Part shown: positions 22,696 to 39,076 of the stretch, in pieces
How the letters are laid out: the number at the start of each line of letters is the position of its first letter
How positions within the stretch are numbered: the stretch's first letter is position 1
The notes under the pieces: generated by a model
Seen by the model: the letters and a program-made list of their open reading frames with translations, nothing else
Told to the model about the DNA's origin: nothing
The model's database searches: none
Made by a program: the position numbers and the translations under genes
From: an uncultured Clostridia bacterium
Lineage (GTDB): Bacteria; Bacillota; Clostridia; Oscillospirales; CAG-272
DNA: 64,000 nt
Assembly: GCA_947627475.1 (NCBI GenBank)
Contig: CANQWE010000002.1
Span: 11,990 to 75,989 of the forward strand
Direction of reading: 5' to 3'

Positions 22696-22757
22696 TGTTT
22701 TTCCATTGTTAAAACAATAGATTTATTCACACTTTTCTAATATAATCAATCTATCCG

Positions 22758-22771
22758 TCAATAAATATTGA
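22758..22771. promoter_or_regulatory. candidate TetR operator tcaata-aa-tattga
   Basis: 6-2-6 inverted repeat just after a TATAAT (22741-22746), about 45 nt upstream of the tetR start. Confidence 0.3.
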
Positions 22772-22813
22772 TTACGGCACGATGTGTAATAAGAAATTGA
22801 AAGGAGGCTTCTT

Positions 22814-23378
22814 ATGTCACAAATCACAAAACGAGCTTTGGAGGCATCCCTTAAAAATATGCTTCTTCAGAAGCCGCTAGATAAAATCACCATTAACAAT
22901 ATTGCAAAGGACTGTGGTATCAACCGCATGACATTCTATTACCACTTCAAAGATATCTACGACTTAGTGGAGTGGTCCTTGTGCTGAGGATGCGGCCAAA
23001 GCGTCGGCCGGGAATAATACCTATGACACTTGGCAGCAAGGACTTTTGCAGATATTTGAGGTAGTCAAAGAAAATAAGCCCTTTATCATGAATGTGTACC
23101 GTTCCGTCAGCCGGGAACAAGTAGAGCTTTACTTATACAAGGTCACCTACGGGCTGCTTCTGAATATTATAAACGAGGAAGCCGCCGATGAACCGCTAAG
23201 CGAGGGAGATAAATTCTTCATCGCCCACTTTTATAAGTATGTCTTTGTGGGGCTGATGTTAGTCTGGATTCGAGGGGATATGAAGGAAGATCCGAAAGAG
23301 ATTGTCGATCATCTTTCGTTACTAATGCAGGGGAAATTTTCCCGGGCACTAAAAGCGTACCGCGCTGGAAAAAACTAA
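22814..23378 (+). pseudogene. TetR/AcrR (DhaS-like) regulator, frameshifted
   Basis: The HTH part MSQITKRALEASL..GINRMTFYYHFKDIYDLVEW ends at TGA 22985-22987. The C-terminal domain continues in another frame (..CAEDAAKA..QQGLLQIFEVVKENKPF..). Confidence 0.7.
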
Positions 23379-23524
23379 ACAAATTCGACAATTTGATAAA
23401 TTCCCAAGCAGAAATGCCGTTGTGATATGAGTTTTATCATAACGGCATTTCTGCTGATTTTGGAAGTTTTTGAAGGCCGCTATAATTACATAAACCCAAA
23501 GCAAATTCTATGTAGGGATTCATT

Positions 23525-25295
23525 ATGTATTAATCAAGCGGTAACTATGAAGCATTTGCACGCCCTGAAAATCCGGAAGGTATTGAGCACAAATCAGCGT
23601 ATTTGATCGGCAGCGCCTGGCATCCCTGGCGGCGGCTTGTTTCCTCGTCAGAGACGTTCGGATGCCCGGAAGCCATATTCATGTGCTGGAACGTGATTCT
23701 CATCCCGGCGGCGCTTTGGATGGCGATTAGATGACCAGTGTTGGTTATGTGATGCACGGCGGACGGGAAATGGACAATCACTTCGAGTGTTTGTGGGACC
23801 TGTTTCGTTCCATTCCATCCATCGAAACCGATGGCGTCAGCGTTTTGGACGAATACTATTGGCTGAATAAGAAAGACCCCAACAATTCTCTGTGCCGGGC
23901 GACCCAAAACCGAGGCGAAGGCGCACAGACCGGCAATAAATTTGGCCTTTCGGACAAAGGCAGTATGGAAATTATGAAGTTGTTCATGACTCCGGATGAG
24001 CAGCTGGCCAATGTGAAAATGACAGAACTGTTTGACGATGAGGTTTTTAACACCAACTTCTGGATGTATTGGCGCACCATGTTTGGTTTTAAGGACGACC
24101 AGAGTGCTCTGAAATGAAGCGGTATATGCAGCGCTACATCCACCATATCGAAGGATTGCCGGACTTCACCGCGCTGCGTTTTACGAAATACAACCAGTAC
24201 GAGTCCATGGTACTTCCCATGGTGAAATATTTGGAGGGGCACGGCGTGCAATTCCACTATGGCGCCCGGGTGATGAACGTGCTATTTAACATTCACGACG
24301 GCCAAAAACAAGCAAAGACCATTGTAGTGGAGCACGAAGGCCAGGCCGAGAATATCGGTCTGACCGAAAACGATCTGGTGTTCTACACCAACGGCAGCAA
24401 TGTGGAAAACTCCACCTACGGCAGCCAGACCAAAGCCACCGGTATGGACGGAACCATCCACGAAGGCGGCTCCTTCAGCCTTTGGCGAAAAATCGCAGCT
24501 CAGGATCCTTCCTTTGGCCGTCCCGATAAGTTCTGTACCGATCCGGAGGACAGCAACTGGGTCAGCGCCGCAGTCAATACCCTTGACGAGAGAATTCTGC
24601 CCTATATTCGGAATATCTGCAAGCGCGATCCTCTGTCCGGAAAGGTAGTCACAGGCGGTATTGTTACGGTCAAGGATTCCAGTTGGCTTCTCAGCTGGAC
24701 AAACAATCGTCATCCTAAATACCGTAACCAGCCCAAGGGGCAGGTATTGGTATGGCTTACGGAATGGTCTCTGACCGTCCCGGCGACTTTGTGAGAAAGG
24801 CCATGCGCGACTGCACCGGTATGGAAATCTGTGAAGAATGGCTTTATGACCTGGGTGTTCCCGAGGATCAGATTGAGGAGTTGGCAAGAAACAGCGCCAA
24901 TACAGTTCCGGTCATGATGCCTTTTGCCAGCGCATATTTCCAGCCCCGCGAATCTGGTGACAGACCTGATATCGTACCTGACGGTTCGGTGAACTTTGCC
25001 TTTATCGGTAATTTCGCAGAAACACCCAGAGATACGGTTTTTACCACGGAATATTCCATTCGTACCGCTATGGAGGCAGTCTACACGCTGCTAAATGTGG
25101 ATCGTGAAGTGCCGGAGGTGGGGGCAGTTATTTAATATCCGTGATTTGCTGAACGCCACCGTAGCGTTAAGAGATGGAAAGAAAATTACGAATATGGAGC
25201 TTGGGCTCAAAGAACGGGTTGCTCTAAAGGAAGTTTTGAAAAAAATCGAAGGGACAGAGATTGAAAAACTTTTGGAAGGCCACAATGTAATTTAA
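23525..25295 (+). pseudogene. ohyA: oleate hydratase (MCRA family), multiply disrupted
   Basis: [18 protein letters not shown].., GGREMDNHFECLWDLF, FWMYWRTMF, KRYMQRYIHHIEGLPDF and [17 protein letters not shown] are spread over at least 5 frames. Lesions are listed in the findings. Confidence 0.8.
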
Positions 25296-25619
25296 TTACT
25301 GAAAAAGTTGTGGAAAACATTCCCTAAATTACAAAATTCAATAGCTTCAATAAAATACCGCAATGAAAGAACAATTGGCGATAAGTGTACAGGTCCAAAT
25401 GTACGGGCTGTACAAAAAAAGCACCTTATGGTAGAAAGAATTAAATATTAAGCAGCATACTGACTTCTCTTTTCAAGGGCAGTCAGTTTTGCTTTTAACC
25501 GGATAGGTTGATGATTGAAAAGTAGAAGTATTCTCATTTATGAGTATGCGTGCTTAATCATAAGTTTATAGCTTGGTACGTTAATGCACTCTGTTTTAAG
25601 AATGGAAAAAAATATTCAG

Positions 25620-26100
25620 CTAAAGCGTTGTCAAAAGGGTACCCATGACATTGAGGGCGTTATGCCGTAAGATGGTGTCGGCTTAAAATATACTTGGGAT
25701 GTATACTGAAAGCCCCCGTCCCTGTAGAGCTGCGGCTCTACAGGGACGGGGGCTTTTTCTTTTGCAGCACGCATAGCAGATAGAACAAGGCTGATGTTCT
25801 GTCCCTGTTCTGCAGGCAACTATGCTGTTGTCGAATAAATTTCTGACGATAGACAAAGACAATGTTCCCTGTACTGTTTTGATTTATAAATATCTGTAAC
25901 CCATCTTTGGTTTGATCTGTGTGCCTTGAAATCTCACACTTGATGGCATTTGTAAAACTGTATAGAGGGTTTAAAAACATTCCCCAAAATTTTTTGAAAG
26001 AGAGCTCCTTTTCCTACGCTTACTCGCCTCATTCCGGCAGAAATAAGAATCAGTCATGGTGGACAGAGGAATACAAGGAAACCAGAAGCTATTTATATGA
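25620..26100 (-). mobile_element. IS3-family transposase (OrfB) remnant A
   Basis: By-eye translation gives ..DFKAHRSNQRWVTDI.., TVQGTLSLSIVRNLFDNSIVACRTGTEH, ..GGFQYTSQVYFKPTPSYGITPSMS. It is frameshifted and truncated at both ends. Confidence 0.6.
25709..25764 (+). terminator. 22-bp perfect-stem hairpin plus T-run inside IS remnant A
   Basis: aaagcccccgtccctgtagagc-tgcg-gctctacagggacgggggcttt followed by ttcttttg. Confidence 0.5.
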
Positions 26101-26147
26101 AACGAAAACCTCGCCTCCCGATAGTATTCTGCTATATCACATAAAGT

Positions 26148-27155
26148 TTATCGAACAAATTCCTGACTACGATTTTCTAGGAAAGTAAAGTCGAATAGTG
26201 TATTCATATCCGGCATGGTTTGGAAGATTCCCATCTGAAAGAAATAATTGCAGAGATTACGGGTAAACATGACATATTCTTCTTCAATATCCCAGACCCA
26301 CTGATAGTTATCCCGTTCCTGTTGGATTCCCGCCGCATCAAGTCCAAATTCCTTCGCCGAGGACAGACCGAAATCATCCAAAGGAGTTACCATTTCCATA
26401 ACCTGATAGTTGGCATTGACAATTTCCTGAATCCAGTCCCTTTTTTCGTTGATTTTATCTTCCGTTGTGACGAGAACAAGATTTCCATAGCCCAGATCGC
26501 TGGCATAGGGATAGCTCAGGATTTTTCCGTATCCCTCCATAAAAGCAGTACCGGCCAGCGCCGCATCGCCGCAGTAAGCGTCAATGGTTCCGGACTGCAG
26601 CGCCTCGTTCAGCTCTGATGGCTCCATTTCCTTCCAAGTAATAGAGCCGGCGTCTATTTTTCGGTTATACAGATCTGCTCGCAGCTGTGCGTATTCCATG
26701 GAACCATCGGTATATCCAACGACTTTTCCAGCCAGTTTTTCAATGGAGGTTATGTTCTGTTCCGTTGCCGTCACAACGGCGGAACCCTTTTGATAAAAAT
26801 TGCACAGAATTTTTACTTTATGTCCATCTAGCTGCGCCTGCAGTACAGACGGCAATGCCGACACACAGACGTCCACCTCCCCGGCTGTCAGCGCCTCAAT
26901 GGGCTGCGTGGATTTAGAATATTCCTTTACTTCACAGGAATATCCGGTACTTATATGCTTTGGATACTCCCGAACCGGCAGGGTAGGGAAAGACGCATAG
27001 ATGCCAACACTTACTGGATCCAGGGCCTGAGACTCGGAGCTGTGACCATCCTGGACAGACACGTTATTGCCGCAGCCGCAAGCGGCTACGATCCAGAAAG
27101 CAACGGAAAAAGCTACAGCAAGAAACCTTATATACATGTGTTTCATATTTATCAT
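26148..27155 (-). CDS. ABC-type substrate-binding lipoprotein, NMT1/SsuA/TauA-like (orphan)
   Basis: Lipobox VAACG, with periplasmic-binding fold similarity as I judge it. No permease or ATPase gene is adjacent. Confidence 0.65.
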   Translation of the reverse strand: MINMKHMYIRFLAVAFSVAFWIVAACGCGNNVSVQDGHSSESQALDPVSVGIYASFPTLPVREYPKHISTGYSCEVKEYSKSTQPIEALTAGEVDVCVSALPSVLQAQLDGHKVKILCNFYQKGSAVVTATEQNITSIEKLAGKVVGYTDGSMEYAQLRADLYNRKIDAGSITWKEMEPSELNEALQSGTIDAYCGDAALAGTAFMEGYGKILSYPYASDLGYGNLVLVTTEDKINEKRDWIQEIVNANYQVMEMVTPLDDFGLSSAKEFGLDAAGIQQERDNYQWVWDIEEEYVMFTRNLCNYFFQMGIFQTMPDMNTLFDFTFLENRSQEFVR

Positions 27156-27325
27156 TTCATCCTTTCAGTATCTCATATTTCTACCTGTAGTAAAGAATAG
27201 CATATTTCCATTTGCATTGGAAGTGATTTTTCATAAATTTAACTTACGTTTTACTTAAATTAGATAGTTGCTATTTGAACAATCTACTAAAATAAAGCCG
27301 TACTAATATAAAGGAGGATATGTAA

Positions 27326-30300
27326 ATGAAATTAAAATCCAAAAAAGTAGGCGGGAAAGCACTGGCTGCATGTCTGGCAGCAGTCCAACTGTTGACGCTT
27401 GCCGTACCTCTAAGCGCAGCAGGAGGCTCGGAAGTCCCCAGCAAAGCTGTCGCGGGAAAAAGCAATGTGGATCCGGGCTTTACCTACGGAAGCAAAGGTC
27501 GTGACTATGTTACTGGGCAGGACTACTATTATTTGGAAAATCAGTACGTCAAAACCTTAATTGGTCCGACAAAGGCGGCCAATGACCAACAGGGTCCTAT
27601 GTCTAACGGCGCGATTATGGATGCTGTGACACAGGAAGCCAAGCGTGAAAACCTGGACTGGACACAGTTTTTTCTGGCTTCAAAGATGAGCGGATCTTGG
27701 GATATGGGCAAAGGTGTATTGGACCTGAATGAGTTAGAGGTCAAGGGGAACACCATAGTCGGAAAAGGTGTTTCGGAAGCCACACCGAATATTCAAGGCG
27801 AAGTTACCTATTCTATTGTGGAGAATACGCCCCTTATTCAGATGCAGGTGAAACTGACCAACAATGGTTCAGAGGATTACAATGGATATTTTGAATATCA
27901 GATTGATCCGGATGAAAGCGGTGAACAAAACACTTACGTACCGGGTGTGGGCTGGACCATGGGCAATATCTATACGGTTCTAACAAACCACGAGTGGACG
28001 GGGAACTACATCTTTGAAGGTTCTGCCAGCAAATATACCGGAAACACCGCCCATGCAATCCTGTGGGATGAAGCAGATACAGTTCCCAGCGGGCTGCTGA
28101 ATGACGGATACATTTTCGGGATCTGGTATGACGCCTCCTTGAAAGCTGGCGAGAGCAAAACGCTGACATTTTACCACTTGCCGCACCAGCCGGGTGGAGT
28201 GAGCGAGCCGTATGCCGAAGCCGCTTTCTGGGCTAAGGTTGTCAGCGGCGAAATTGATATTTCCAATTACGGTACGATCAACGGCTCTGTTACCGACCGG
28301 TACGGTAATCCCGTGAAAAATGTGGATATTACTTGCCAGTATGCAGTGGGCGAACATGCAGGGGAAAGTGCAGGGACGACCGTCACGGATGTGAATGGCA
28401 ACTATTCCCTTCGCGTAGAGAAGGGGCCGTATACTCTGACCGCTTCTATACCCGGGTATGAGCAGAGTTCGCATTCAGTGGATCTGAATAACCAGGAAAA
28501 TCCCCGTGCGGATATTATTTTAGAATCCATAAAAGGAACCCGCATTCTGGACACTACCAGCATGCAATCCTTTGGCGGAATAGTGGAAGGTAAACCCGGA
28601 GACTATACGCTGGAAAATGAAGCCTTTACCATGCTGGTTGCGAAGATCACAAAGGACGGTCAACTGAAAGATTCCTCTGCGGGTCGTATTTTAGACATCG
28701 CCGCTAACGGTAAATCGGACGTCATGGACTTTATATTTACCAGTTGGATTTCAGATGTTAAGCCGCATCAGGAAACGCAGGACAACGTAGTACCTGGCGA
28801 TTCCTGGCAACAGTTGGATACCAGGTTTGATAATCTGGAAGTAGTATCCCAGTCTAAAAGTAAAATTGTTCTGAAAGCCACCGGTGTCTACCATCATGAT
28901 CTGGCAAACGCCCCTGAAAGCAAGGATGGCGAAATCGAGCAGATCATCACCTTAGAGAGCGGTAAGCCCTATGCTGAGTTGGAAACCACCATTCGCAATA
29001 CCAGCGGTCAGGAGCTGCAGGTATATGTCGGCGACATTTTTGATGTGGATGGGAACGCACAAAAGTCCTATGCGCCTGGGGTTGGCGATGTAACGGCACC
29101 TTTTAATTCGCCGATCGATGAGAAACCGGTCCAGCCGTGGTTTGCACAGTATGCCACTAGTGATCAGGAGGTTTATTCGTTCCTGTACGAAGATGATTTT
29201 GATTTCCGGGTATTCGGCAGTACCAACTGGCTGATGGGTTATGCTCCGGTAAAGCTGGCAGCAGACGAAACCTTCACATATAGCCGGCAGCTCATCGTTC
29301 TGGATACCGAAGGCTATACCCAGCAGCCGGAGGCCATGACTGCCTACTATAACGCCTATAAATACGGCATGGAAACCCGTATGGATGTGTATGATGGCAA
29401 GGTACAGAAGGGAGATGTTTTCCCGGTCAAGGTCACAGTGGAAAATTCAGCCGAGAAACCGATCCGGAATGTGACGGCATCATTGAAGCTTCCTTATCAG
29501 ATGTACTGTGTCGGTGAATCGGAAATCACTATTCCAGAAATTCCGGCTGGCGGAACCGAAACCGTGGAATTCTCTGTTCTGGCGCTGGAAGGCGGTCGTG
29601 GGTTGCTAAAATCGGAGGTAAGGACAGCAGATGACGTAGCAATGACTTTCTCAGAGGCGTTGTCAATCTCCGGACAGGGGTACTATGCCGGTGACAACCA
29701 TACCCACTCCATCTATAGTGATGGAAAGGGAACCATCCGTGAAAATGTAGACTCTGCTTATGAGGATAAGCTGCTTAACTGGCTGTACAGCACCGACCAC
29801 AACAAGATTAGCCAGTACAATGATACGGTGACAGAAACTAACCGTCTCACCGGTAACTTTGTCAACATCACCGGTACAGAAATTACTTCTTCCAATAAAG
29901 GACATGCCTTAGCTTACGGTGTTGGTTCCTTTATCCCGGAGTATCGAATTGGGAAGGAAGTCAATGGTAAAGTTTGGACTTGGCAGGACACAATTGATCA
30001 GGTAAATAGCAATGGCGGCGTTCTCTATGTGGCGCACCCCAACTATCCGGGGCTAGAATTTTCCGATCCTTATGGCATCCGTGAGTACACAGGTATCGAA
30101 GTCTGGAACGGTTTCAATCACGCCATCGATCCGGACAAGAACATCAATACATTTGCCTTTGATTACTGGGATAATGTCAACCGCCGCGGTGAACAGAAAT
30201 ACTTTGGAATCGCCAACTCGGACGGTCACAACTCTACGAAGATGGGGGATCCGTATATCAAGACCGAAATGGATAACCTTTCATATGATAACATCCAAGA

Positions 30301-32152
30301 TATTTTGGCAAATGGTAGCTTCTACGGCTCCAATGGTCCAGAACTCCGCTATGATATTGAAGGCGTGGGCATGGGTGAAACGCTTACCATCAAGGAAAGC
30401 GGAAATGTCGATTTCAACATCACCGCTTTCGACCAGAACTATGATCTGGTGAACGTCAAACTCATTAAAAACACTATTACCGGCAGTGCAGAAAAGGGCG
30501 AAGCAGAAGTTGTCTTCAATAAAGACCTGAAGGGTCAGGGGCTCAGCGAGTTCAAGACCACACTGTCTCTGCCCGTTAAGGCGGGAGAATTTTACCGCGT
30601 TGAGGTAACCAGTGAACAGGGAACCACCGGTAACGGAGGAAATGGAGAAGGACAGGGACTTGGCTTTGCTTTCTCAAATCCTATCTGGATCAGCGATGGG
30701 GAAAAATCCAATGCCACTGACATCAAGAAAATTACCTACGCTGGCGGACAGGTTATCGAAACCGTTGGTGATAACATGGTAATTACGGTGGAGGATGTTT
30801 TCTCGGTCGACAAACTGAATGTGGAGGTTTCGGATGAAGCCGCCGTCCGCACCGAAGTTATTGATGCAGTGGATGATGAACTGGATACGGCTGCAGCTGT
30901 AAAAATTACGGTGACGGCAGAAGATGGCACGCAGGATGTGGAAACCGTCTTCCTGACTAAAGGAAAAGTTGAAGAAACTCCTGCTGAAATTATATCTTTC
31001 ACCACGGCTTTTGTGAAGACAGAAGAGGGAAAGCAGCCGCAGATGCCGGAAACGGTGGAGGCTACATATGATAATGGCTCAATTAAATCTGTGGCTGTCG
31101 ATTGGGATGAAGTCACAGAGGATATGGTTGCCGAACCTGGTATTTTCAAGGTGGAAGGTACGGTAACCGGAACCACTATCAAGGCGGAAGCATTTGTTCA
31201 GGTCGTACCTGGCAAGGATGTAGAAAATGTCCGTGGTCTGTTGCAGAAAACCTACAAGTTTGCGCAGAATTTGAGTTCTGATGGGGTGACCGACAGTGCT
31301 AAGGTGTTCTTTGAAAAGGCCAAAGAGCAGGCGAAGGCCGCGTTGGAGAACCCGAGCGCAACCCAAGAGGAATTGTCTTCTGCATGGGATACTCTGCTGG
31401 AAGGTATCTGGGGTTTGGGGCTGTACCAGCCAGATAAAGCAACTCTGGGTTTGCTGATTGAGAAGGCAGAGAGCATGGTTGCTCAGGAAGATAAATATGT
31501 AAAGAGAAACTGGCAGAAGCTGGTAGATTCTTTGGCCCAGGCAAAAACTGTTATGGATGATGGGGATGCCATGGAAGACGAGGTGTCCTTCGCCACAGAG
31601 GAGCTGCTGAATTCTATCCATCTTCAGTTGTACAAGGCGGACAAAGCCATTCTTGAAAGCCTGATCCAAAAAGCGGAAGGTTTGGATCTGACCAGCTATA
31701 CCCAGGAAAGCGTTGCCGTGCTGAAGTCGGCTCTGTTAAAGGCCAATGCCGTTTATGCTGACGTTACCCTGAGCATAAATGATCAGGAGAAAGTGGACGA
31801 AGCCGCCGACAGCCTGAATGAGGCAATGAACGGCTTAGTTAAACTGTCAGATGTATCTGGTGGAAACAACACTGGAAATAACCAGGACAGCAACACTGGA
31901 AATAACCAGGACAGCAACTCTGGAAACAACCAGGACAACAACTCTGGAAACGATCAAGGCAAAGAGGATGGAGCAGGCGATAATCAGGTCAAGCCATCGG
32001 GTGACAGCAATGTGGATGGCAAAGATCATAATGACATTTCCAATCCGCAGACCGGGGAAAGCCGGACGGGTATGTTAGCGGCGCTCTTGGCTGGTATTTC
32101 GTCTTTGGTGTTGCTTCTTGGCAGCAGAGTTTGGAAAAGAAAGACAAAATAA
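27326..32152 (+). CDS. 1,608-aa wall-anchored multidomain protein with PHP/CehA-McbA-type metallohydrolase domain
   Basis: AAAGGAGG RBS and a signal peptide. Also a CarboxypepD_reg-like domain, DNHTHSIYSDG..VAHPNYPG..NSDGHN (PHP), Ig-like and helical repeats, and an N/Q/D stalk. The protein ends in NPQTG, a hydrophobic helix and RKTK. Confidence 0.85.
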   Translation: MKLKSKKVGGKALAACLAAVQLLTLAVPLSAAGGSEVPSKAVAGKSNVDPGFTYGSKGRDYVTGQDYYYLENQYVKTLIGPTKAANDQQGPMSNGAIMDAVTQEAKRENLDWTQFFLASKMSGSWDMGKGVLDLNELEVKGNTIVGKGVSEATPNIQGEVTYSIVENTPLIQMQVKLTNNGSEDYNGYFEYQIDPDESGEQNTYVPGVGWTMGNIYTVLTNHEWTGNYIFEGSASKYTGNTAHAILWDEADTVPSGLLNDGYIFGIWYDASLKAGESKTLTFYHLPHQPGGVSEPYAEAAFWAKVVSGEIDISNYGTINGSVTDRYGNPVKNVDITCQYAVGEHAGESAGTTVTDVNGNYSLRVEKGPYTLTASIPGYEQSSHSVDLNNQENPRADIILESIKGTRILDTTSMQSFGGIVEGKPGDYTLENEAFTMLVAKITKDGQLKDSSAGRILDIAANGKSDVMDFIFTSWISDVKPHQETQDNVVPGDSWQQLDTRFDNLEVVSQSKSKIVLKATGVYHHDLANAPESKDGEIEQIITLESGKPYAELETTIRNTSGQELQVYVGDIFDVDGNAQKSYAPGVGDVTAPFNSPIDEKPVQPWFAQYATSDQEVYSFLYEDDFDFRVFGSTNWLMGYAPVKLAADETFTYSRQLIVLDTEGYTQQPEAMTAYYNAYKYGMETRMDVYDGKVQKGDVFPVKVTVENSAEKPIRNVTASLKLPYQMYCVGESEITIPEIPAGGTETVEFSVLALEGGRGLLKSEVRTADDVAMTFSEALSISGQGYYAGDNHTHSIYSDGKGTIRENVDSAYEDKLLNWLYSTDHNKISQYNDTVTETNRLTGNFVNITGTEITSSNKGHALAYGVGSFIPEYRIGKEVNGKVWTWQDTIDQVNSNGGVLYVAHPNYPGLEFSDPYGIREYTGIEVWNGFNHAIDPDKNINTFAFDYWDNVNRRGEQKYFGIANSDGHNSTKMGDPYIKTEMDNLSYDNIQDILANGSFYGSNGPELRYDIEGVGMGETLTIKESGNVDFNITAFDQNYDLVNVKLIKNTITGSAEKGEAEVVFNKDLKGQGLSEFKTTLSLPVKAGEFYRVEVTSEQGTTGNGGNGEGQGLGFAFSNPIWISDGEKSNATDIKKITYAGGQVIETVGDNMVITVEDVFSVDKLNVEVSDEAAVRTEVIDAVDDELDTAAAVKITVTAEDGTQDVETVFLTKGKVEETPAEIISFTTAFVKTEEGKQPQMPETVEATYDNGSIKSVAVDWDEVTEDMVAEPGIFKVEGTVTGTTIKAEAFVQVVPGKDVENVRGLLQKTYKFAQNLSSDGVTDSAKVFFEKAKEQAKAALENPSATQEELSSAWDTLLEGIWGLGLYQPDKATLGLLIEKAESMVAQEDKYVKRNWQKLVDSLAQAKTVMDDGDAMEDEVSFATEELLNSIHLQLYKADKAILESLIQKAEGLDLTSYTQESVAVLKSALLKANAVYADVTLSINDQEKVDEAADSLNEAMNGLVKLSDVSGGNNTGNNQDSNTGNNQDSNSGNNQDNNSGNDQGKEDGAGDNQVKPSGDSNVDGKDHNDISNPQTGESRTGMLAALLAGISSLVLLLGSRVWKRKTK
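31868..31957 (+). repeat. in-frame 24-nt tandem repeat (NTGNNQDS x ~3.7)
   Basis: aacactggaaataaccaggacagc repeated at 31868, 31892, 31916 and 31940, with increasing divergence. Confidence 0.85.
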
Positions 32153-32186
32153 TAACGTCCTATATCAAAGCTTTCAAAAGTAAGGT

Positions 32187-32229
32187 AGCACGCCCTGTCA
32201 ACCGTATGGTTGACAGAGCGTGCTTTTTC
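32187..32229 (+). terminator. rho-independent terminator of the 1,608-aa gene
   Basis: 17-bp stem agcacgccctgtcaacc/ggttgacagagcgtgct (1 mismatch) followed by ttttt. Confidence 0.8.
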
Positions 32230-32382
32230 AGGTACCTAAAGAGGAAACACCGAAAATGGAGGAAAACACAATGAACAAACGCACCGCCAACAGATTACAG
32301 AAATGAAAAGCCAGGCCATCGGAGTCGAGGTTAGACCTATGTCAATACTTTGGATAAAAAGGCTGGAAGTTTGTGCCACTTT

Positions 32383-32480
32383 TTAAATTTCATCCACGTT
32401 TTGCTGCGGAGTCATATAATCAATGGCACTGTGAATTTTTTCGGTTATACTATGATTCTATATACTCAAAGATAGCCCTG
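32383..32480 (-). mobile_element. IS3-family transposase C-terminal fragment C
   Basis: By-eye translation gives AIFEYIES*YNRK(K)IHSAIDYMTPQQNVDEI*, which carries one stop and one frameshift in an A-run. Confidence 0.45.
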
Positions 32481-32536
32481 CTCCCTTATAATCCTGTTAA
32501 GTGCGACGATGGACTTCCTCGTTAGGAGGGATTTTT

Positions 32537-33650
32537 ATGCCCAAAAGTTACAAACCTATCATGGAATATGAAAAAGAAATATTAGAATAGAAAGCATAAT
32601 ATTACGTCCAATGGATGAACAATTAGGGTTTATATATAAGCAACAGCACAATTTCATTCCGCGTCACAATGCCAATCAGCGTAAGCTAAGCAGAAATAGC
32701 GTTAAAACGCAAAGGCAGACCGTCCAAAAACTATGTTGTATCGGAACAAAATAAGGCAGCCGAGCGAAATAGATCCTTGCTCACAAAGAAGAAAAGATAA
32801 AATTATTAAAAAGGAAAATGCACTGATGCGGGATTTTCGCTTGCTTACCAAAAAGAAGTAAGATCAAACATAAAATAATAGTGATCTGTTGTCATAGAAA
32901 CAAATATGGGTAAGAAAAATGTGCAGATTGTTCTTGGTATCAACAAGCGAATATTATGACTTTGGCAAGCAAATGGATCCACCTGCAAAAGATTTGCCGT
33001 TGACGAAAAAGATACAGGAATGCCTAAAAAGTGCGGAAAGACCTACAGATACCGCAGAGTACATATATGGTTAGAGCGTAACGGCATACATCAGAATAGC
33101 AAAAAATGCTTCGTGTTATGCAGAAATACGGTAGAAATACAATTTTTGTCACCAGTCAGAAGAAAGCAATAGGACAATTATGGAGAATATCTGCAACATT
33201 ATCCTAAATTACTGAACAGAGATTTGAAGGACGCAGACCAAACCAAAAGTGGGGTACAGATATTTTTGTATCAAAACAGCACGGGGAACATTGTATTTGT
33301 CTATCATCAGAGATTTATTTGGCAACAGCATAGTTGCCTATAGAACAGGGATAGAACATTAGTTTTGCTCTATCTGCTATGCGTGAAAAAGCTACCCGTT
33401 ACCAGAAATTGAACGCACGCAAGCGCAAATCTGACAGTATAAACCGGTACAAAATGCTGGCGCGGAAAATTTCCGCCCAAATTTACCGGAAATGCAGCCA
33501 TCATATTTTCCTGTACAGCGACTTTCTGGAAAGTATTGTACAGGGGCGAAAACTATGACCGAAGGCGAGGGTAAAGGCTTCTCCTGTACCATATTGCAAA
33601 GAGCCAAAGCGCAGGATTTTTTGTGAAAACGATCCTACTTGTTTTGCAAT
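32537..33650 (+). mobile_element. IS3-family element remnant B (orfA + orfB, heavily decayed)
   Basis: RBS aggaggg plus MPKSYKPIMEYEKEILE*; MCRLFLVSTSEYYDF..; ..RPNQKWGTDI..; TARGTLYLSIIRDLFGNSIVAYRTGIEH. Many stops and frameshifts. Confidence 0.6.
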
Positions 33651-33779
33651 GTTGTAAGTATGCATTGGATCATTATAAAAATGAATCCTCGAAAGAGGAC
33701 AAATAGCATTTAATAGAAAAGGCCCCTTGTGGGCGGTTTCCAAGGAACCGCCCACAAGGGGCAGTCAGCATTAACTGAC

Positions 33780-34425
33780 TGAGGGATTGCTATACTATAG
33801 GATTGTAGAAAAAGGAAAGGACATACTTACAATCTCTCCGAGTTTTGCTGCGCAAAATCCACCTCCCTTTACACAAGGGAGGCTTTTATTTTAGAAATAA
33901 CAGAATACCCCCACCGGCGGCAGGGTCGCCACCACCCCCTGGCAGGTCGTTCTGCGACCTGCAGCACTGGGGAGGCTTTTTAGTAGTTCCTCGAACAATA
34001 TGTTTTACAGAATCTTTATTTTAACAGTTGAACCAAGTGGCTACAGATAATAATGTTTCTTTCAACTACGCTGTCTCCTCTTTAACGCCCCCCCAAAGAA
34101 AACAGATTCATTGTAGGTTATTTCCTTTTATGGGGTTTTAATACAAGATTTTTTGGGGGAGATATTATCCCTCTGGAAAAACTGGTGAAAGAGGAAACGG
34201 CGTAACTTCAGTCACGCCGCCCCTTGAAAGCACATTTTTTCAACCTTTTTCAATTTTTACTGTTGTTTTACAACCACCCAGCATTAAACCAGCAGCTTTT
34301 TTAAGTAGCTCTTGCTACGCTCGTTGCCCTCCTCCTTGTAAACATTACAATGGAACTAATGCGTTAAGCCCCCCTATGCTGTAGGGGGGTGTCCCGGCAG
34401 GCCGGGACGAAAGGGTTGGTCATAC
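33780..34425. other. ORF-free, hairpin-studded spacer at the right edge of the island
   Basis: No ORF of 60 aa or more. Contains GC-rich hairpins in an AT-rich background. Confidence 0.4.
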
Positions 34426-34430
34426 AACAT

Positions 34431-35504
34431 TTACCGCTCATCCTCTATCAGAAGCTGCGCAAATCCTTCTGTATAGCAGGCTTCTCCGGATTCGTCAATC
34501 CAGGCTGCCTCCACACCGTCCAGACTCTCGATCAGCGCCCTGCCCTGGTCATAGGGCATATTGAATACCGCCGTAGACAGGGCATCTGCCATACCTGCAT
34601 GGCTGCACAGGATAGAGACAGAAACAAAAGAATTTTCCGGCTGCAGCGTCTGCGGATGGATAATATGGTGATACCGTACGCCATCCACCATATAATACCG
34701 CTGATACGATCCGCTGGTCACCAGGGATAAATCCGTTAGTGCAACCCGACAGAAGGTGGCGTCCTGCGCCTCAAGATCCGGATTTTGAATACCTGCGGTC
34801 CAGGGAGTGCCATCCCCTTTTGTGCCAATGGTGCGCACATTGCCTCCCACGCTGAACGCCAAATGGTCCCACCCCATTTCCCGGGCAGCTGCAGCAGCCA
34901 TTTCTGTAGCATATCCTTTGGCAATGGAACCTACGTCCAGCTGCATCTGGGGATCCGGCAAATACACGGTTCCCCCGTCCCGGTCAATTACAACAGAATC
35001 TATATCCATATGCTGTGCTGCAGCTTCCAGCTCAGCCCGGTCCGGCAGCGACGCATGCTCCGGATCCTCTATACCCGCTTCCCTATATGTATGCCATATG
35101 GAAAGCACGCTGCCCATGGCTATGTTGGTCATTCCCTGGGTGAGGGTGTACATCTCCCGGCTGTACTCCAGCATATCTATAATACGGGCGTCCACCGCTA
35201 CAGGCTCCAGGCCCGCGTGATCATTTACCGTTTTTAAATTGTTAATCCCATCATAATCATGATAAATATCATATAGCTGGTGATACTCCTCCAGCAGCTG
35301 CAGCAGCCAGTCCGCCTTTGTTTCAAATGCCTGCTCCGACGTATCAAAGCCGGTGATCACCGTTACCGTATCAAACAAATCAAAGGAAGTGCGGGAATAG
35401 CGATTCAACACAGCGTCCTCCTGGGCAGGGCGGCTGCATCCACCGAAAACAGGCAGCAGAAGGATCAGAGCGGCAAGCTGGGCCATGTATTTTCTTATTT
35501 GCAT
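34431..35504 (-). CDS. apbE: FAD:protein FMN transferase (ApbE family) lipoprotein
   Basis: Lipobox FGGCS and ApbE-like core (AMGSV, DVGSIAKGYA, SGSYQRY). Start at MQIRKY. Confidence 0.85.
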   Translation of the reverse strand: MQIRKYMAQLAALILLLPVFGGCSRPAQEDAVLNRYSRTSFDLFDTVTVITGFDTSEQAFETKADWLLQLLEEYHQLYDIYHDYDGINNLKTVNDHAGLEPVAVDARIIDMLEYSREMYTLTQGMTNIAMGSVLSIWHTYREAGIEDPEHASLPDRAELEAAAQHMDIDSVVIDRDGGTVYLPDPQMQLDVGSIAKGYATEMAAAAAREMGWDHLAFSVGGNVRTIGTKGDGTPWTAGIQNPDLEAQDATFCRVALTDLSLVTSGSYQRYYMVDGVRYHHIIHPQTLQPENSFVSVSILCSHAGMADALSTAVFNMPYDQGRALIESLDGVEAAWIDESGEACYTEGFAQLLIEDER

Positions 35505-35571
35505 GGTAATGTCTTTCCTCGTCCTATGAAAAATACAGAGCTCCTGCAGCTGCAGGAGCTCCATAAGCCGG

Positions 35572-36633
35572 TTATTTTTCCAGCGCCTTTTCTATTACAG
35601 CGATCCACTGGTCAATTCCTACAGTACAGCCTGCGTAAAGGTCTGTATCCTTTGCAACCATGTTTCCGCTGTCGTTTTGCTGGGTTTCGATCCCTGTAAC
35701 TTCATCCGGGGTTTTACCGGCAACAAAGTCCGCAAAAGCCTTTTCCTGCTCATACCACTCCTTGCCGATACCGGACATGTCCTTCATACCGTATTCTTCT
35801 TTCAATTCCCGCTTGGAACCGTCGAATTGCATTTCGCCGATAGCGCCGTCTGCACCGAAAGCGATTTTGGGTTCGATTTCATCCACACAGCAAGCCAAAA
35901 CTCTGCCATCATTCTCTACAACAGCGGTAAAGGTTGTGTACATGGCAGCCAGTCCGTCTGCTTCGTCGGAAGCGTCCTTGGAAGAAGCGTCTTCCGTTAC
36001 AGCTGCAAACCGCAGGGTTGGATTGCTGGTAGACTGGAAGGCATATGCCTGGTCGTCTTTGCAGGCCTTTGCTACTGCCTGAATCATTTCTGTTACCCCT
36101 ACAGTACAGCCGGCATACAGATCTTCATCGGCAGCCACCTGCGCGCCTGCGTCATTTGCCTCTGTTTTAATGGCAGAAACCTCGTCGCCGGTCATTCCCT
36201 TTACATAGCCGGCAAAAAAGTCCGCCTGTTCGTTCCATTCCTTACCGATACCAGAAGCGTCCTTCATATTATAATCGGCGCCCAGCTCCTGCTTGGTCTG
36301 GTAGGCTTGTCCCTTTTCGGCTACCCCGTCTGCTACAGACATTTTATTCTGCGCCGCATCGATATAGCAATCCACAATTTTACCGCTCTCGTCTGTGATC
36401 ACAGCGGCGAAGGTTGCTTCTACCTGGGCTGTTCCATCCTTGGATTTCGCGGTATCTACCTGAACACCCATACCCAACTTGTACGCGCCGCTATCTCCGG
36501 CTGCGTTCTCTGTCGTCTTTGCAGTGTCATTTTCTGCAGAGGTGTCCTTGCCATCCCCATTTTTGTCGCTGCATCCTGCAAACAAAGTAGCGGTAAGCAG
36601 CACAGCAAAAAATACTGAAAGAAATTTTTTCAT
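35572..36633 (-). CDS. two-domain lipoprotein, probable extracytoplasmic FMN-binding (PplA-like) ApbE substrate
   Basis: Lipobox FAGCS and two ~160-aa repeats, each ending D-LYAGCTVG(V/I). ApbE lies immediately downstream. Confidence 0.55.
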   Translation of the reverse strand: MKKFLSVFFAVLLTATLFAGCSDKNGDGKDTSAENDTAKTTENAAGDSGAYKLGMGVQVDTAKSKDGTAQVEATFAAVITDESGKIVDCYIDAAQNKMSVADGVAEKGQAYQTKQELGADYNMKDASGIGKEWNEQADFFAGYVKGMTGDEVSAIKTEANDAGAQVAADEDLYAGCTVGVTEMIQAVAKACKDDQAYAFQSTSNPTLRFAAVTEDASSKDASDEADGLAAMYTTFTAVVENDGRVLACCVDEIEPKIAFGADGAIGEMQFDGSKRELKEEYGMKDMSGIGKEWYEQEKAFADFVAGKTPDEVTGIETQQNDSGNMVAKDTDLYAGCTVGIDQWIAVIEKALEK

Positions 36634-36721: not shown

Positions 36722-38947
36722 TTACGATTTCTTTTGCACTGCTGTAAAAGGAAGCTCCAGCCGCTCTAACGTCTCCAAAATCGGCGCATTCTCCTCCACG
36801 CAAAGGGTAGTGGTCTTTTCAAAAGAGTCAGCGGTAATCCGGGTAATTTCTACCGGAAGGGTCAGCCGCGCAAGGCTGGTACATCCTGCAAAAACCTTGC
36901 TGTCGATAGCGGTGAGCGTGTGGGGCAGCTGCACCTTTTCCAGTGCAGTGCAGCCCGAAAAAGCGCCATACCCCAGCTCTGTAAGCCCTTCTCCAAGGGT
37001 CACAGACTGCAAAGCCGTACAATCAGCAAAAGCATACAAACCGATCAGGGGGGTGGATGCGGTACGCATACTTTTCAGTCCGGCCCCGCGAAAGGCGCCA
37101 GCTTCGATTTTTTTCACCCTTGCAGGCACCGTATAGTTTTGATTTCCCAGTCCCCCTGGATACAGAATCAGCGTTTCCCCGTCCGCAGAAAACAGTACAC
37201 CGTCCACCACCGAATACAGGGAATCATATCCGGAAGTCCGGATATCCGCCAAAGCGCTGCAGCCGGCAAACATTCCCCCAGTCACCTGGGCAGACGCAAA
37301 TAGTCCCAGAGACTGGAGCTTTTCCATACCCGCAAAGGCCCCGTCTCCTATAAAGGTAACGCTTTTGGGAATGTCTAAATACTGCACAGCGCTGCAGCTC
37401 TGGAAAGCGTTTTCTCCAATAGACTGCAGGGAGGCCGGCAGCGTAATCTTCTGAAGCGCGGTACAGCCCGAAAATGCCCTGTCTCCAAGAGATTGGATTC
37501 CATATGGAATATTTGCCTGCAAAAGTCCCGTGCAATTTTCAAACGCGCCTTCCTCCACGGACTGTATCCCTTCCGGAATGGAAGCACTTTGCAACCCTGT
37601 GCAGCCGCTGAAAAAGCGGGCAGGTATCCTTACGGCGTCGGCTGGAAGGGTATATTCTAAAAGTCCGCTGCAGTCAGCAAATACCCCCTGCCCAAGAGTC
37701 TCTGTATTATTGGATATATGCGCCTGGGTCAGCGCGCTACAGCCTTCATAGGCCCCGTCTCCAATATGCAAAATCTGACTACTGATACCAGAGTCCCTCA
37801 GAGCAGTGCATCCGGCAAACAGGTGCGGGGGAATTGCCGATATGCCTGCCGGCAGAGGCGGCGTTTGCAGAGAAATACAGTCCAAAAAGGCACCTTCCGA
37901 TAGGGCAGTATTCTCGTTTTCATAGGTCACCTCTGTCAAAGACGTACAGCCGGCGAACAGCTCTTTTCCAAGGGTAAGGGTTTTGCCCCCGAAGGCTGCT
38001 CGCTCCAGAGCACTGCACCCGGCAAGGGCACGGTCTCCTATATTGAGGCAGTTGATTTCCGCCAGGGTGACGGAACTGCATCCCTGAAACGCACCCGCAC
38101 CAATAGAATCCGCATCGGGAATGACGATCTGCGTAAGAGCGGCACAATTTTCAAAGGCGTTTTGTCCGATCTTGGACGCGTCAGCAGACAGGACCAGAGA
38201 AATCTGCAAATCCCCACAATTTTGGAAGGCGCAGGCGCCGATAGATATGACCCCTTCTCCCAAAGGAAAAGCGGCCAGCAGCCTGCAATCCTGAAACGCA
38301 TAGGCGCCGATTTGGGTAATTTCCCCTGCTACAACCTCTGTAAGAGACGCACACCCGTCAAACGCGCCGTAGGATATTTCCTCCACGCCCCCTAAGTCTA
38401 TCTGGACAAGGCTGGTGCACCCCTCAAAGGCGCGCACACCTACCCGGGACACCTTCCTGCCCACTGTCAGCTGCGTGATCTTTTCCATATGGACAAATCC
38501 CTCGTCTGCAATTCCCTCCACTGTTTTGCCGTCAAAGGTATCGGGAATGGTAATGGATTCAGGTACATCTCCTGTATAGTCTGCATTATAGGAAAGCATT
38601 CCATCGGAAAACCACAGCCAGGGGGCCTCTTTACTGGTAAGCGCTATGGTTTCGTCTGTGGCTCTTTTACCGGAAAACAAACTTCCAAATCGCAAAAATA
38701 ACGCGGCTGCTCCTGCTACTACAAGCAAAACACATACGACAATCAGCCAAAGCTGCCGCCTTACAGCGCGGCGTACCAGTTCGCCCTTTTCCGGCAGCGG
38801 CACTGCTGCGCCGCTGGCCCCAGGATCATTTTCCCTATCAAAAGGATCCCTCTGTGCTTTCTCCATACGGGCTTGGAGGGCAGCGGTATCCAGGTCTTTC
38901 AGGGAGCCTGAAGCTTCTCTCTCTTCTCCATTCGTATGTTGTTCCAC
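36722..38947 (-). CDS. BspA-type leucine-rich-repeat (LRR_5) membrane-anchored protein
   Basis: More than 15 repeats of IPxxVxxIGxxAFxxCxxL and one N-terminal TM helix. Start is probably GTG 38947 (AGGAG 8 nt upstream). ATG 38998 lies in a -10-like box. Confidence 0.75.
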   Translation of the reverse strand: MEQHTNGEEREASGSLKDLDTAALQARMEKAQRDPFDRENDPGASGAAVPLPEKGELVRRAVRRQLWLIVVCVLLVVAGAAALFLRFGSLFSGKRATDETIALTSKEAPWLWFSDGMLSYNADYTGDVPESITIPDTFDGKTVEGIADEGFVHMEKITQLTVGRKVSRVGVRAFEGCTSLVQIDLGGVEEISYGAFDGCASLTEVVAGEITQIGAYAFQDCRLLAAFPLGEGVISIGACAFQNCGDLQISLVLSADASKIGQNAFENCAALTQIVIPDADSIGAGAFQGCSSVTLAEINCLNIGDRALAGCSALERAAFGGKTLTLGKELFAGCTSLTEVTYENENTALSEGAFLDCISLQTPPLPAGISAIPPHLFAGCTALRDSGISSQILHIGDGAYEGCSALTQAHISNNTETLGQGVFADCSGLLEYTLPADAVRIPARFFSGCTGLQSASIPEGIQSVEEGAFENCTGLLQANIPYGIQSLGDRAFSGCTALQKITLPASLQSIGENAFQSCSAVQYLDIPKSVTFIGDGAFAGMEKLQSLGLFASAQVTGGMFAGCSALADIRTSGYDSLYSVVDGVLFSADGETLILYPGGLGNQNYTVPARVKKIEAGAFRGAGLKSMRTASTPLIGLYAFADCTALQSVTLGEGLTELGYGAFSGCTALEKVQLPHTLTAIDSKVFAGCTSLARLTLPVEITRITADSFEKTTTLCVEENAPILETLERLELPFTAVQKKS

Positions 38948-39076
38948 GGGAAGCACTCCTTTCCAAGCAGAAATCCTTCTCAATTTATATGATAGCATAC
39001 CTTTTTATAAAACTCAATAGCAGGGCAAAACGGTTTTAAAAAATTTAAAAATTTGTATGATTTTCCATGAATCCCC

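Follow-up and report, generated by a model that had tools for sequence, protein, structure and literature searches.

A lipoprotein with two divergent FMN_bind-like repeats, paired with an ApbE flavin transferase, as a predicted extracytoplasmic electron relay in Clostridia

The lipoprotein-ApbE gene pair

We analyzed a stretch of 64,000 nucleotides (the window) from an uncultured Clostridia bacterium (GenBank assembly GCA_947627475.1, contig CANQWE010000002.1, positions 11,990 to 75,989). On its minus strand two open reading frames (ORFs) follow each other in the same direction, the first encoding a lipoprotein and the second an ApbE-type flavin transferase (Table 1). The lipoprotein is built from two related domains, each ending in a motif that resembles the site to which ApbE enzymes attach flavin mononucleotide (FMN). 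We consider it likely that this protein is flavinylated by its ApbE neighbor and acts as an extracytoplasmic electron relay similar to the Listeria lipoprotein PplA.

An AT-rich leader of its own precedes the lipoprotein gene, with AGGAGG 8 nt before the ATG. The lipobox cysteine C21 is invariant in an alignment of the lipoprotein with its 38 closest homologues. The two halves of the protein are homologous, since their local alignment scores 288, compared to 37 +/- 7 (maximum 60) for 200 shuffles. Each repeat comprises about 155 residues (~150-157 aa) and ends in D-x-D-L-Y-A-G-C-T-V-G. The AGCT motifs occupy residues 174-177 and 334-337, and the two putative acceptor threonines are therefore 160 residues apart. 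The ORF list and the half-against-half alignment agree in this with the initial annotation of the locus, which had described two ORFs and two repeats ending in AGCT. Its bases for the acceptor codons, nt 36103-36105 for Thr177 and nt 35623-35625 for Thr337, are exact.

The downstream ORF, listed as 34431-35564 (-), was recognized as ApbE from the outset, and the match to PF02424 (E 1e-65, 222 bits against a cutoff of 25.6) supports this. Its start has to be corrected to the ATG at 35504, most likely, because the first 20 codons of the ORF form a terminator-like hairpin and are not coding. The sequence GAGGAAAG precedes this ATG and lies after the hairpin. From the re-assigned start the protein begins with a predicted signal peptide with a Cys, indicating extracytoplasmic targeting of the lipoprotein type.

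Table 1. Window coordinates of the gene pair, its domains and sites, and adjoining features
Feature	Coordinates	Strand	Basis
Lipoprotein gene, two FMN-bind2-type domains, 353 aa	35572..36633 (stop codon included)	-	ORF
Predicted signal peptide and lipobox L-F-A-G-C21 (aa 1-21)	36571..36633	-	sequence; Cys21 is the lipidation site
Low-complexity tether (aa 22-46)	36496..36570	-	pLDDT <50 for residues 11-27 and 29-45; length variable in the alignment
FMN-bind2 domain 1 (aa 47-196)	36046..36495	-	internal repeat; single-domain AF2; profile match to 2KZX
FMN-bind2 domain 2 (aa 197-353)	35575..36045	-	internal repeat; secondary-structure order as in domain 1
Site 1, D171-L-Y-A-G-C-T177, predicted FMN acceptor Thr177	36103..36123	-	alignment with DAISGAT of 2KZX and with the RnfG sites SGAT and AGVT
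Site 2, D331-L-Y-A-G-C-T337, predicted FMN acceptor Thr337	35623..35643	-	equivalent position in repeat 2
ApbE flavin transferase (357 aa with the most likely start, ATG 35504), lipoprotein signal ...LPVFGGC	34431..35504	-	PF02424; start re-assigned from sequence
Intercistronic hairpin, 13-14 bp perfect, with U-run	35534..35565	-	between lipoprotein stop and ApbE start; scan match, 14 pairs
BspA-type LRR_5 membrane protein, upstream, co-directional	36722..38998	-	PF13306 E 4e-109
pLDDT, predicted local distance difference test; AF2, AlphaFold2.

Homology to FMN_bind domains and the acceptor motif

Domain databases do not recognize the lipoprotein. It has no Pfam or NCBIfam family, the NCBIfam output being signal-peptide-level noise, and a phmmer search against the PDB sequences returned a chance match to NDUFA11 (E 0.2). 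Homologues are plentiful, with more than 1,200 at 90% clustering, almost all of them unannotated. An exhaustive profile search collected 1,849 representatives (50% identity), of which 1,382 reached E <= 1e-10. Five of the 38 closest homologues match the FMN_bind model PF04205 (best E 1.9e-6). The connection of the lipoprotein to PF04205 is transitive, because these matches come from homologues and none from the lipoprotein itself. The profile of the whole family found one solved structure in the PDB, 2KZX (E 6.4e-6). This alignment covers domain 1 and places 'dllagCtmqi' on 'DAISGATIKV', so that agCT falls on SGAT, and the matched fragment of 2KZX is itself a PF04205 domain (25.8 bits against a cutoff of 22). 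Thus, the comparison with the FMN_bind model was positive for five homologues and for 2KZX and negative for the window protein. A profile of a single repeat was also compared to RnfG with hhalign (E 4e-4) and aligned on both RnfG acceptor sites. Furthermore, three homologues (P0141, P0140 and P0237) are lipoproteins in which the two-domain unit comes after between one and three canonical PF04205 domains (lowest E 1.5e-26). In P0237 one domain of that unit carries a canonical SGAT and the next one ASVT. Judged by these sequence comparisons, the repeats are divergent FMN_bind domains. The structure match, the RnfG alignment and the fusion proteins bear out what had been proposed from the letters alone, namely that the repeats are FMN_bind-like and that the AGCT threonines correspond to the flavinylated Thr of SGAT.

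The initial annotation regarded the protein as being of a divergent type, and this type has in fact already been described. Huang, Meheust, Barquera & Light (2024, mSystems, PMC11334425) defined the subtype FMN-bind2 in Firmicutes as a domain of ~160 aa, present two or four times per protein, whose beta-sheet is extended by insertions. According to AlphaFold models, on which that description rests, FMN-bind2 domains combine pseudo-symmetrically in pairs, and each such unit has two flavinylation sites (PMC11334425). The published example, NTW96865.1 from an Erysipelotrichaceae bacterium, has no InterPro or Pfam entry (PMC11334425). The lipoprotein resembles this subtype in domain size, even copy number, long strands, a compact two-site unit and the lack of Pfam annotation, where membership follows from the published description and not from an alignment to NTW96865.1. 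AF2 modeled the whole lipoprotein with a mean pLDDT of 89 and a predicted template modeling score (pTM) of 0.84, and domain 1 alone with a pLDDT of 94. In the model each repeat consists of three strands of 9-14 residues followed by helices, with the acceptor Thr just before the last helix, and both domains together are predicted to form a compact unit. Based on sequence and model, the repeats are assigned to the FMN-bind2 subtype. We found one study that names FMN-bind2, which reports no experiment on the subtype (PMC11334425). Its text contains the words 'lipoprotein', 'cysteine' and 'PplA' 0 times, and it mentions neither an A-[G/S]-[C/V]-[T/S] motif nor a synteny with Rnf or Ndh2-type electron-transfer genes. 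The domain type has thus been known since 2024, and the window pair is a further member of that unannotated family. Several members are longer, namely P0121 (983 aa), P0125 (991 aa) and L059, in which the FMN-bind2 domain is repeated four or six times in tandem and the motifs are either all of the Cys form or all of the Val form. An odd number of copies never occurs, which agrees with domains arranged in pairs.

The canonical flavinylation motif is D-x-x-[S/T]-G-A-[S/T]. In the window lipoprotein, which reads D-x-x-A-G-C-T, the residues at positions -6 (D), -2 (G) and 0 (T) are canonical, and Ala at -3 and Cys at -1 are not. We determined the composition of this motif at 159 sites from 80 species. 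Position -3 is Ala at 151 sites (S 7, E 1), position -2 is mostly Gly (G 91, S 59, T 7, Q 1, A 1) and position -1 is Cys at 136 sites (V 22, H 1). The acceptor position itself is Thr at 110 sites and Ser at 49, and a Thr or Ser is never lost. Among the 38 closest homologues no residue other than Cys occurs here, and it is followed by Thr or Ser. Certain whole proteins of the family carry Val at both sites, and Val is found at three or more separate places of a maximum-likelihood tree. A related degeneracy is seen in RnfG from loci linked to the lipoprotein, where an extra N-terminal site reads A-G-[V/S/A/C]-T with the Gly and the Thr invariant (55/55). An exchange of Ala to Val before the acceptor retained partial flavinylation in a tested substrate (PMC12052999).

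Since Val, and in one relative the Ala of an SGAT, replaces the Cys while the acceptor Thr or Ser stays constant, we conclude that the Cys is non-essential. From its pattern of exchange it looks like a small hydrophobic packing residue rather than a catalytic or sensing thiol. A special thiol chemistry, or the redox-sensing role that had been mentioned as one possibility for the protein, is consequently not indicated. We also considered a rule by which Cys would mark Rnf-type and Val Ndh2-type loci, and rejected it, because the Ndh2-type members form one clade and Val also arises within the Rnf-linked group. In practical terms, an A-[G/S]-[C/V]-[T/S] acceptor motif would widen the motif used for predicting ApbE substrates.

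Genomic setting of the family

To describe the company of the lipoprotein we used 80 loci from different species, which were probed with the ApbE and Rnf proteins of the window genome itself. ApbE lies directly downstream of the lipoprotein in 77 of the 80 loci, or in 75 of the 76 informative loci, those with enough space for it. In 60/80 loci an rnf operon is adjacent, in 50 of them in the order lipoprotein-ApbE-rnfCDGEA(B), in eight divergently upstream and in two convergently downstream. Genes for NusG_II (EetA-like) and PF07456 (EetB-like) proteins follow rnf in at least 32 loci. Six relatives (loci L081, L082, L087 and L090 and genomes G132 and G042) show a different layout, which runs from an Ndh2-like gene (666 aa) over polyprenyl synthase, UbiA prenyltransferase, NusG_II and PF07456 to the lipoprotein and ApbE. 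Such a gene set is the flavin-based electron-export locus of Listeria (PMC8906456, PMC9973259). Hence, in the Ndh2-type extracellular electron transfer (EET) loci of these six relatives the lipoprotein holds the position of PplA. Cultured carriers exist for both layouts, with L087 (Ndh2 type) from Mobilitalea sibirica DSM 26468 and L039 (Rnf type) from Neglectibacter caecimuris M00184. Taken together, the family is mid-sized and almost always paired with ApbE, and it supplies the protein in the PplA position of clostridial Ndh2-type loci and precedes rnf in the majority of the other lineages. In earlier surveys Pfam models served to define ApbE substrates (PMC8238504), and such Pfam-based surveys could not count this family because domain databases miss it.

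The RnfG proteins encoded beside the family are of double length, ~390-516 aa, as seen in 53 RnfG ORFs of 380-520 aa from rnf-linked loci among L018-L089. They carry two conserved candidate acceptor sites, an N-terminal A-G-[V/S/A/C]-T and a C-terminal [S/A/T]-G-A-T. The RnfG structures tabulated in PMC12174285 have one covalent FMN each.

These gene orders would also fit an accessory of flavin handling, that is a buffer or presenter of FMN or flavin adenine dinucleotide (FAD) for ApbE, or a factor for Rnf maturation or outer-face assembly, which would not carry electrons itself. The linkage to ApbE (75/76), the position ahead of rnfC in 50/80 loci and the nearby EetA/EetB FAD-export genes speak for such a role, and the fact that eetB, Rnf and ApbE genes co-localize in Clostridia has been explained by FAD export for flavinylation (PMC9973259). 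However, genomes G042 and G132 encode a full-length lipoprotein and gave no RnfD/NqrB match, and in both it takes the PplA position of an Ndh2-EET locus. Proteins in which the unit follows a chain of canonical FMN_bind domains are more readily explained as redox wires than as chaperones, and an acceptor Thr or Ser is kept at 159/159 sites. We therefore regard an accessory function as improbable. The same two genomes led us to reject an obligate Rnf subunit, as did the fact that Rnf is not enriched among the carriers of the lipoprotein.

Within the tree the window lipoprotein belongs to a clade with good support, which comprises eight species with a free-standing pair and is sister (99/95) to the Ndh2-type clade. 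As had been noted from the sequence, the window itself contains no Rnf, Nqr, Ndh2 or EetAB genes, and all rnf and eetA/eetB matches of the genome are on other contigs. The proposal of a stand-alone flavoprotein thus holds for this locus and for the eight-species clade, but not for the family, given the 60/80 loci that adjoin rnf and the six relatives with Ndh2-EET genes. Two rnfCDGEAB operons, both complete, are present elsewhere in the genome, one on contig C16 and one on C68, and the one on C16 is followed by NusG_II (eetA type) and PF07456 (eetB type) genes. A search of the genome for EET genes returned eetA and eetB on C16, but tblastn found no match to Ndh2 or DmkA-like proteins. Likewise, no match to a UbiA-family prenyltransferase was found in this 96%-complete assembly, while the control search was positive in 14/14 reference genomes.

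The RnfG of the first operon (C16:21751-22998, minus strand, 415 aa) is of the double-length form with two candidate acceptor sites. The RnfG of the second operon (C68:2831-3949, plus strand) has a Thr/Pro/Glu-rich low-complexity C-terminal tail of ~170 aa, which is possibly a wall-spanning extension. The genome encodes a second ApbE-family lipoprotein, of divergent sequence (PF02424, 96 bits), at C70:1145-2182 on the minus strand, beside a membrane protein of 236 aa.

Upstream of the pair lies the gene for a BspA-type LRR_5 membrane protein. The order LRR-lipoprotein-ApbE is shared with the close relatives L011, L012, L013 and L017, and a distant relative, P0180 (1,574 aa), fuses LRR_5 repeats, a dockerin and an FMN-bind2-type domain. 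By association, the LRR_5 protein is a possible partner of the lipoprotein. A further lipoprotein of the family, P0170 (623 aa), combines a Big_2 domain and a Redoxin/AhpC-TSA/thioredoxin-fold domain with the two-domain flavin unit, and this fusion suggests that certain family members feed extracellular thiol or peroxide reduction. We therefore considered that the window protein might be flavinylated and yet serve as a dedicated donor to an extracytoplasmic thiol, peroxide or other reductase, or to the LRR partner, instead of being a general outlet. This would agree with the P0170 and P0180 fusions and with the LRR_5 gene upstream of the pair, an arrangement that the window shares with four close relatives. 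Against it, the two fusions are single examples among 1,849 representatives, and most loci lack such a partner and carry rnf or Ndh2-EET genes. In addition, the window genome has no other FMN_bind-type reductase, the PF04205 matches being RnfG proteins only. A dedicated donor is thus an unlikely explanation for the window protein.

In the nearest relatives gidA, a GFO-type oxidoreductase gene, the LRR_5 gene, the lipoprotein and ApbE are followed by a convergent ispH-rpsA. In the closest of these, L011 and L012, ispH-rpsA begins ~100 bp after apbE, and the window has ~11.7 kb inserted there (22700-34430).

The hairpin between the lipoprotein and ApbE genes folds as RNA with -26.1 kcal/mol (z -3.4), and 0/200 shuffles are as stable. 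Its position is kept in L011, L012, L013 and L017, where both arms have changed in a compensatory manner, the arm reading GGAGCTCC... in the window and GGGATCC... in the relatives. This covariation suggests a conserved element, which may be an attenuator that sets the lipoprotein:ApbE ratio towards less ApbE, or an RNA or 3' stabilizer. Rfam gave no match in the window between 32000 and 39200.

Proposed electron relay and comparison with known systems

The preferred reading, which we hold to be probable, is that of an ApbE-flavinylated, PplA-like extracytoplasmic electron relay. ApbE would attach FMN, taken from FAD, through a phosphoester bond to Thr177 and Thr337, and the FAD for this reaction would be exported via an EetB-type module. 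The resulting two-flavin lipoprotein would be tethered to the membrane by a flexible linker of ~25 residues and would serve as the outermost flavin relay, receiving electrons from a membrane complex and handing them to extracellular acceptors, as PplA does. In the window genome Rnf appears to be the most plausible electron source, because neither a quinone prenyltransferase nor Ndh2-type EET genes were found there. The C16 operon would be the best candidate, because its RnfG has two candidate acceptor sites and eetA/eetB-type FAD-export genes follow it.

Several observations weigh against this relay. Flavin on FMN-bind2 members is a prediction for the subtype as a whole, and so is the acceptance by ApbE of a site with Cys at position -1. 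The lipoprotein does not match PF04205, neither as a whole protein at E <= 1 nor with either domain at E <= 10. In the window genome the pair does not stand beside electron-transfer genes. Among 150 sampled Clostridia genomes the lipoprotein was found in 17 (about 11%) and RnfD in 120, so that the presence of RnfD in 15 of the 17 carriers is not above background. Since Rnf is common in Clostridia anyway, its adjacency may be mere company of ApbE, and could simply follow from the fact that Rnf itself needs ApbE. Finally, Foldseek searches of the PDB gave no match at E <= 0.001 with either the whole or the single-domain model. With the whole model 3O6U was the sole FMN_bind structure recovered (probability 0.63, TM 0.43 target-normalized) and unrelated beta-sheet proteins dominated, because the two domains form one large sheet. 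For this reason a single domain was folded again. In the search with this model IscU scaffolds came out on top (probability 0.85-0.97, TM 0.32-0.44, all E >0.02), and the top 50 matches contained no FMN_bind structure. Structure prediction thus delivered a confident model and tests the FMN_bind-like fold weakly.

The IscU matches, together with the invariance of the Cys in the 38 closest homologues and the lack of an FMN_bind Pfam match, could be taken to mean that the protein is not flavinylated, that its Cys is functional as a metal, Fe-S or thiol site in an IscU-like fold, and that ApbE is adjacent for other reasons. An hhalign comparison with the IscU family of the same genome yielded E 0.32 (probability 0.2%), however, with motifs that do not correspond, and we rejected the IscU-like, Cys-centered interpretation on this ground and on the exchange of Cys for Val. 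Each domain also has one conserved Cys, replaceable by Val, where an IscU/NifU_N scaffold has three. With Val in place of Cys at 22/159 sites, with several origins on the tree, and with a Thr or Ser that is never lost, a non-flavinylated Cys protein is very unlikely. The profile of RnfG also aligns weakly with IscU (E 0.024), its SGAT-helix on the HCS-helix. This may point to a remote resemblance of the FMN_bind and IscU folds, or to chance.

If the lipoprotein is an electron relay of this kind, a broader suggestion may be made. To our knowledge, quinones and cytochromes are absent from many of the Clostridia that are abundant in the gut (Oscillospiraceae, Lachnospiraceae). We tentatively propose, with more doubt than confidence, that lipoprotein-ApbE-rnfCDGEAB-eetA-eetB constitutes a quinone-independent EET route in gut Clostridia, in which Rnf replaces Ndh2 and demethylmenaquinone in the step at the membrane. 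Electrons would pass from the outward-facing flavins of Rnf, including the second acceptor site of RnfG, to the two-flavin lipoprotein and from there to acceptors outside the cell. The window lineage would use the same Rnf-fed route with unlinked genes.

Among characterized systems, PplA of Listeria monocytogenes is a close parallel. Both proteins are surface lipoproteins with two sites, encoded beside a flavin transferase, and the two domains of PplA are flavinylated by ApbE/FmnB. The acceptor threonines of PplA, 143 and 265, are 122 residues apart, which is the size of an FMN-bind1 domain (PMC8906456), whereas the spacing in the window protein is 160. The window genome lacks an Ndh2-EET locus and UbiA, unlike the six relatives that have Ndh2, DmkA/DmkB-like proteins, EetA and EetB. 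Because of the PplA position in the loci of these relatives and the difference in spacing, the lipoprotein is, by analogy, a PplA counterpart built from a longer domain type. On the level of the single domain, 2KZX from C. thermocellum and 3O6U (CPE2226) from C. perfringens share with the lipoprotein an EW-x-EQA helix and an acceptor that starts the last helix. They are, however, single domains of ~120-130 aa with a canonical SGAT, while the lipoprotein has longer strands, is duplicated and carries Cys in place of Ala.

With respect to Rnf, the lipoprotein can be compared to MmcA, the multiheme cytochrome that is encoded with rnf in Methanosarcina acetivorans (PMC12174285), since the layout lipoprotein-ApbE-rnfCDGEAB analogously adds the gene of an extracytoplasmic redox protein. 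Electrons from Rnf are expected to travel through MmcA to other acceptors, extracellular acceptors among them (PMC12174285). MmcA is archaeal, carries haems and is not homologous to the lipoprotein, for which flavins are predicted and a transfer from Rnf is hypothetical. If the proposed route is true, the lipoprotein would be the flavin counterpart of the cytochrome MmcA in Methanosarcina.

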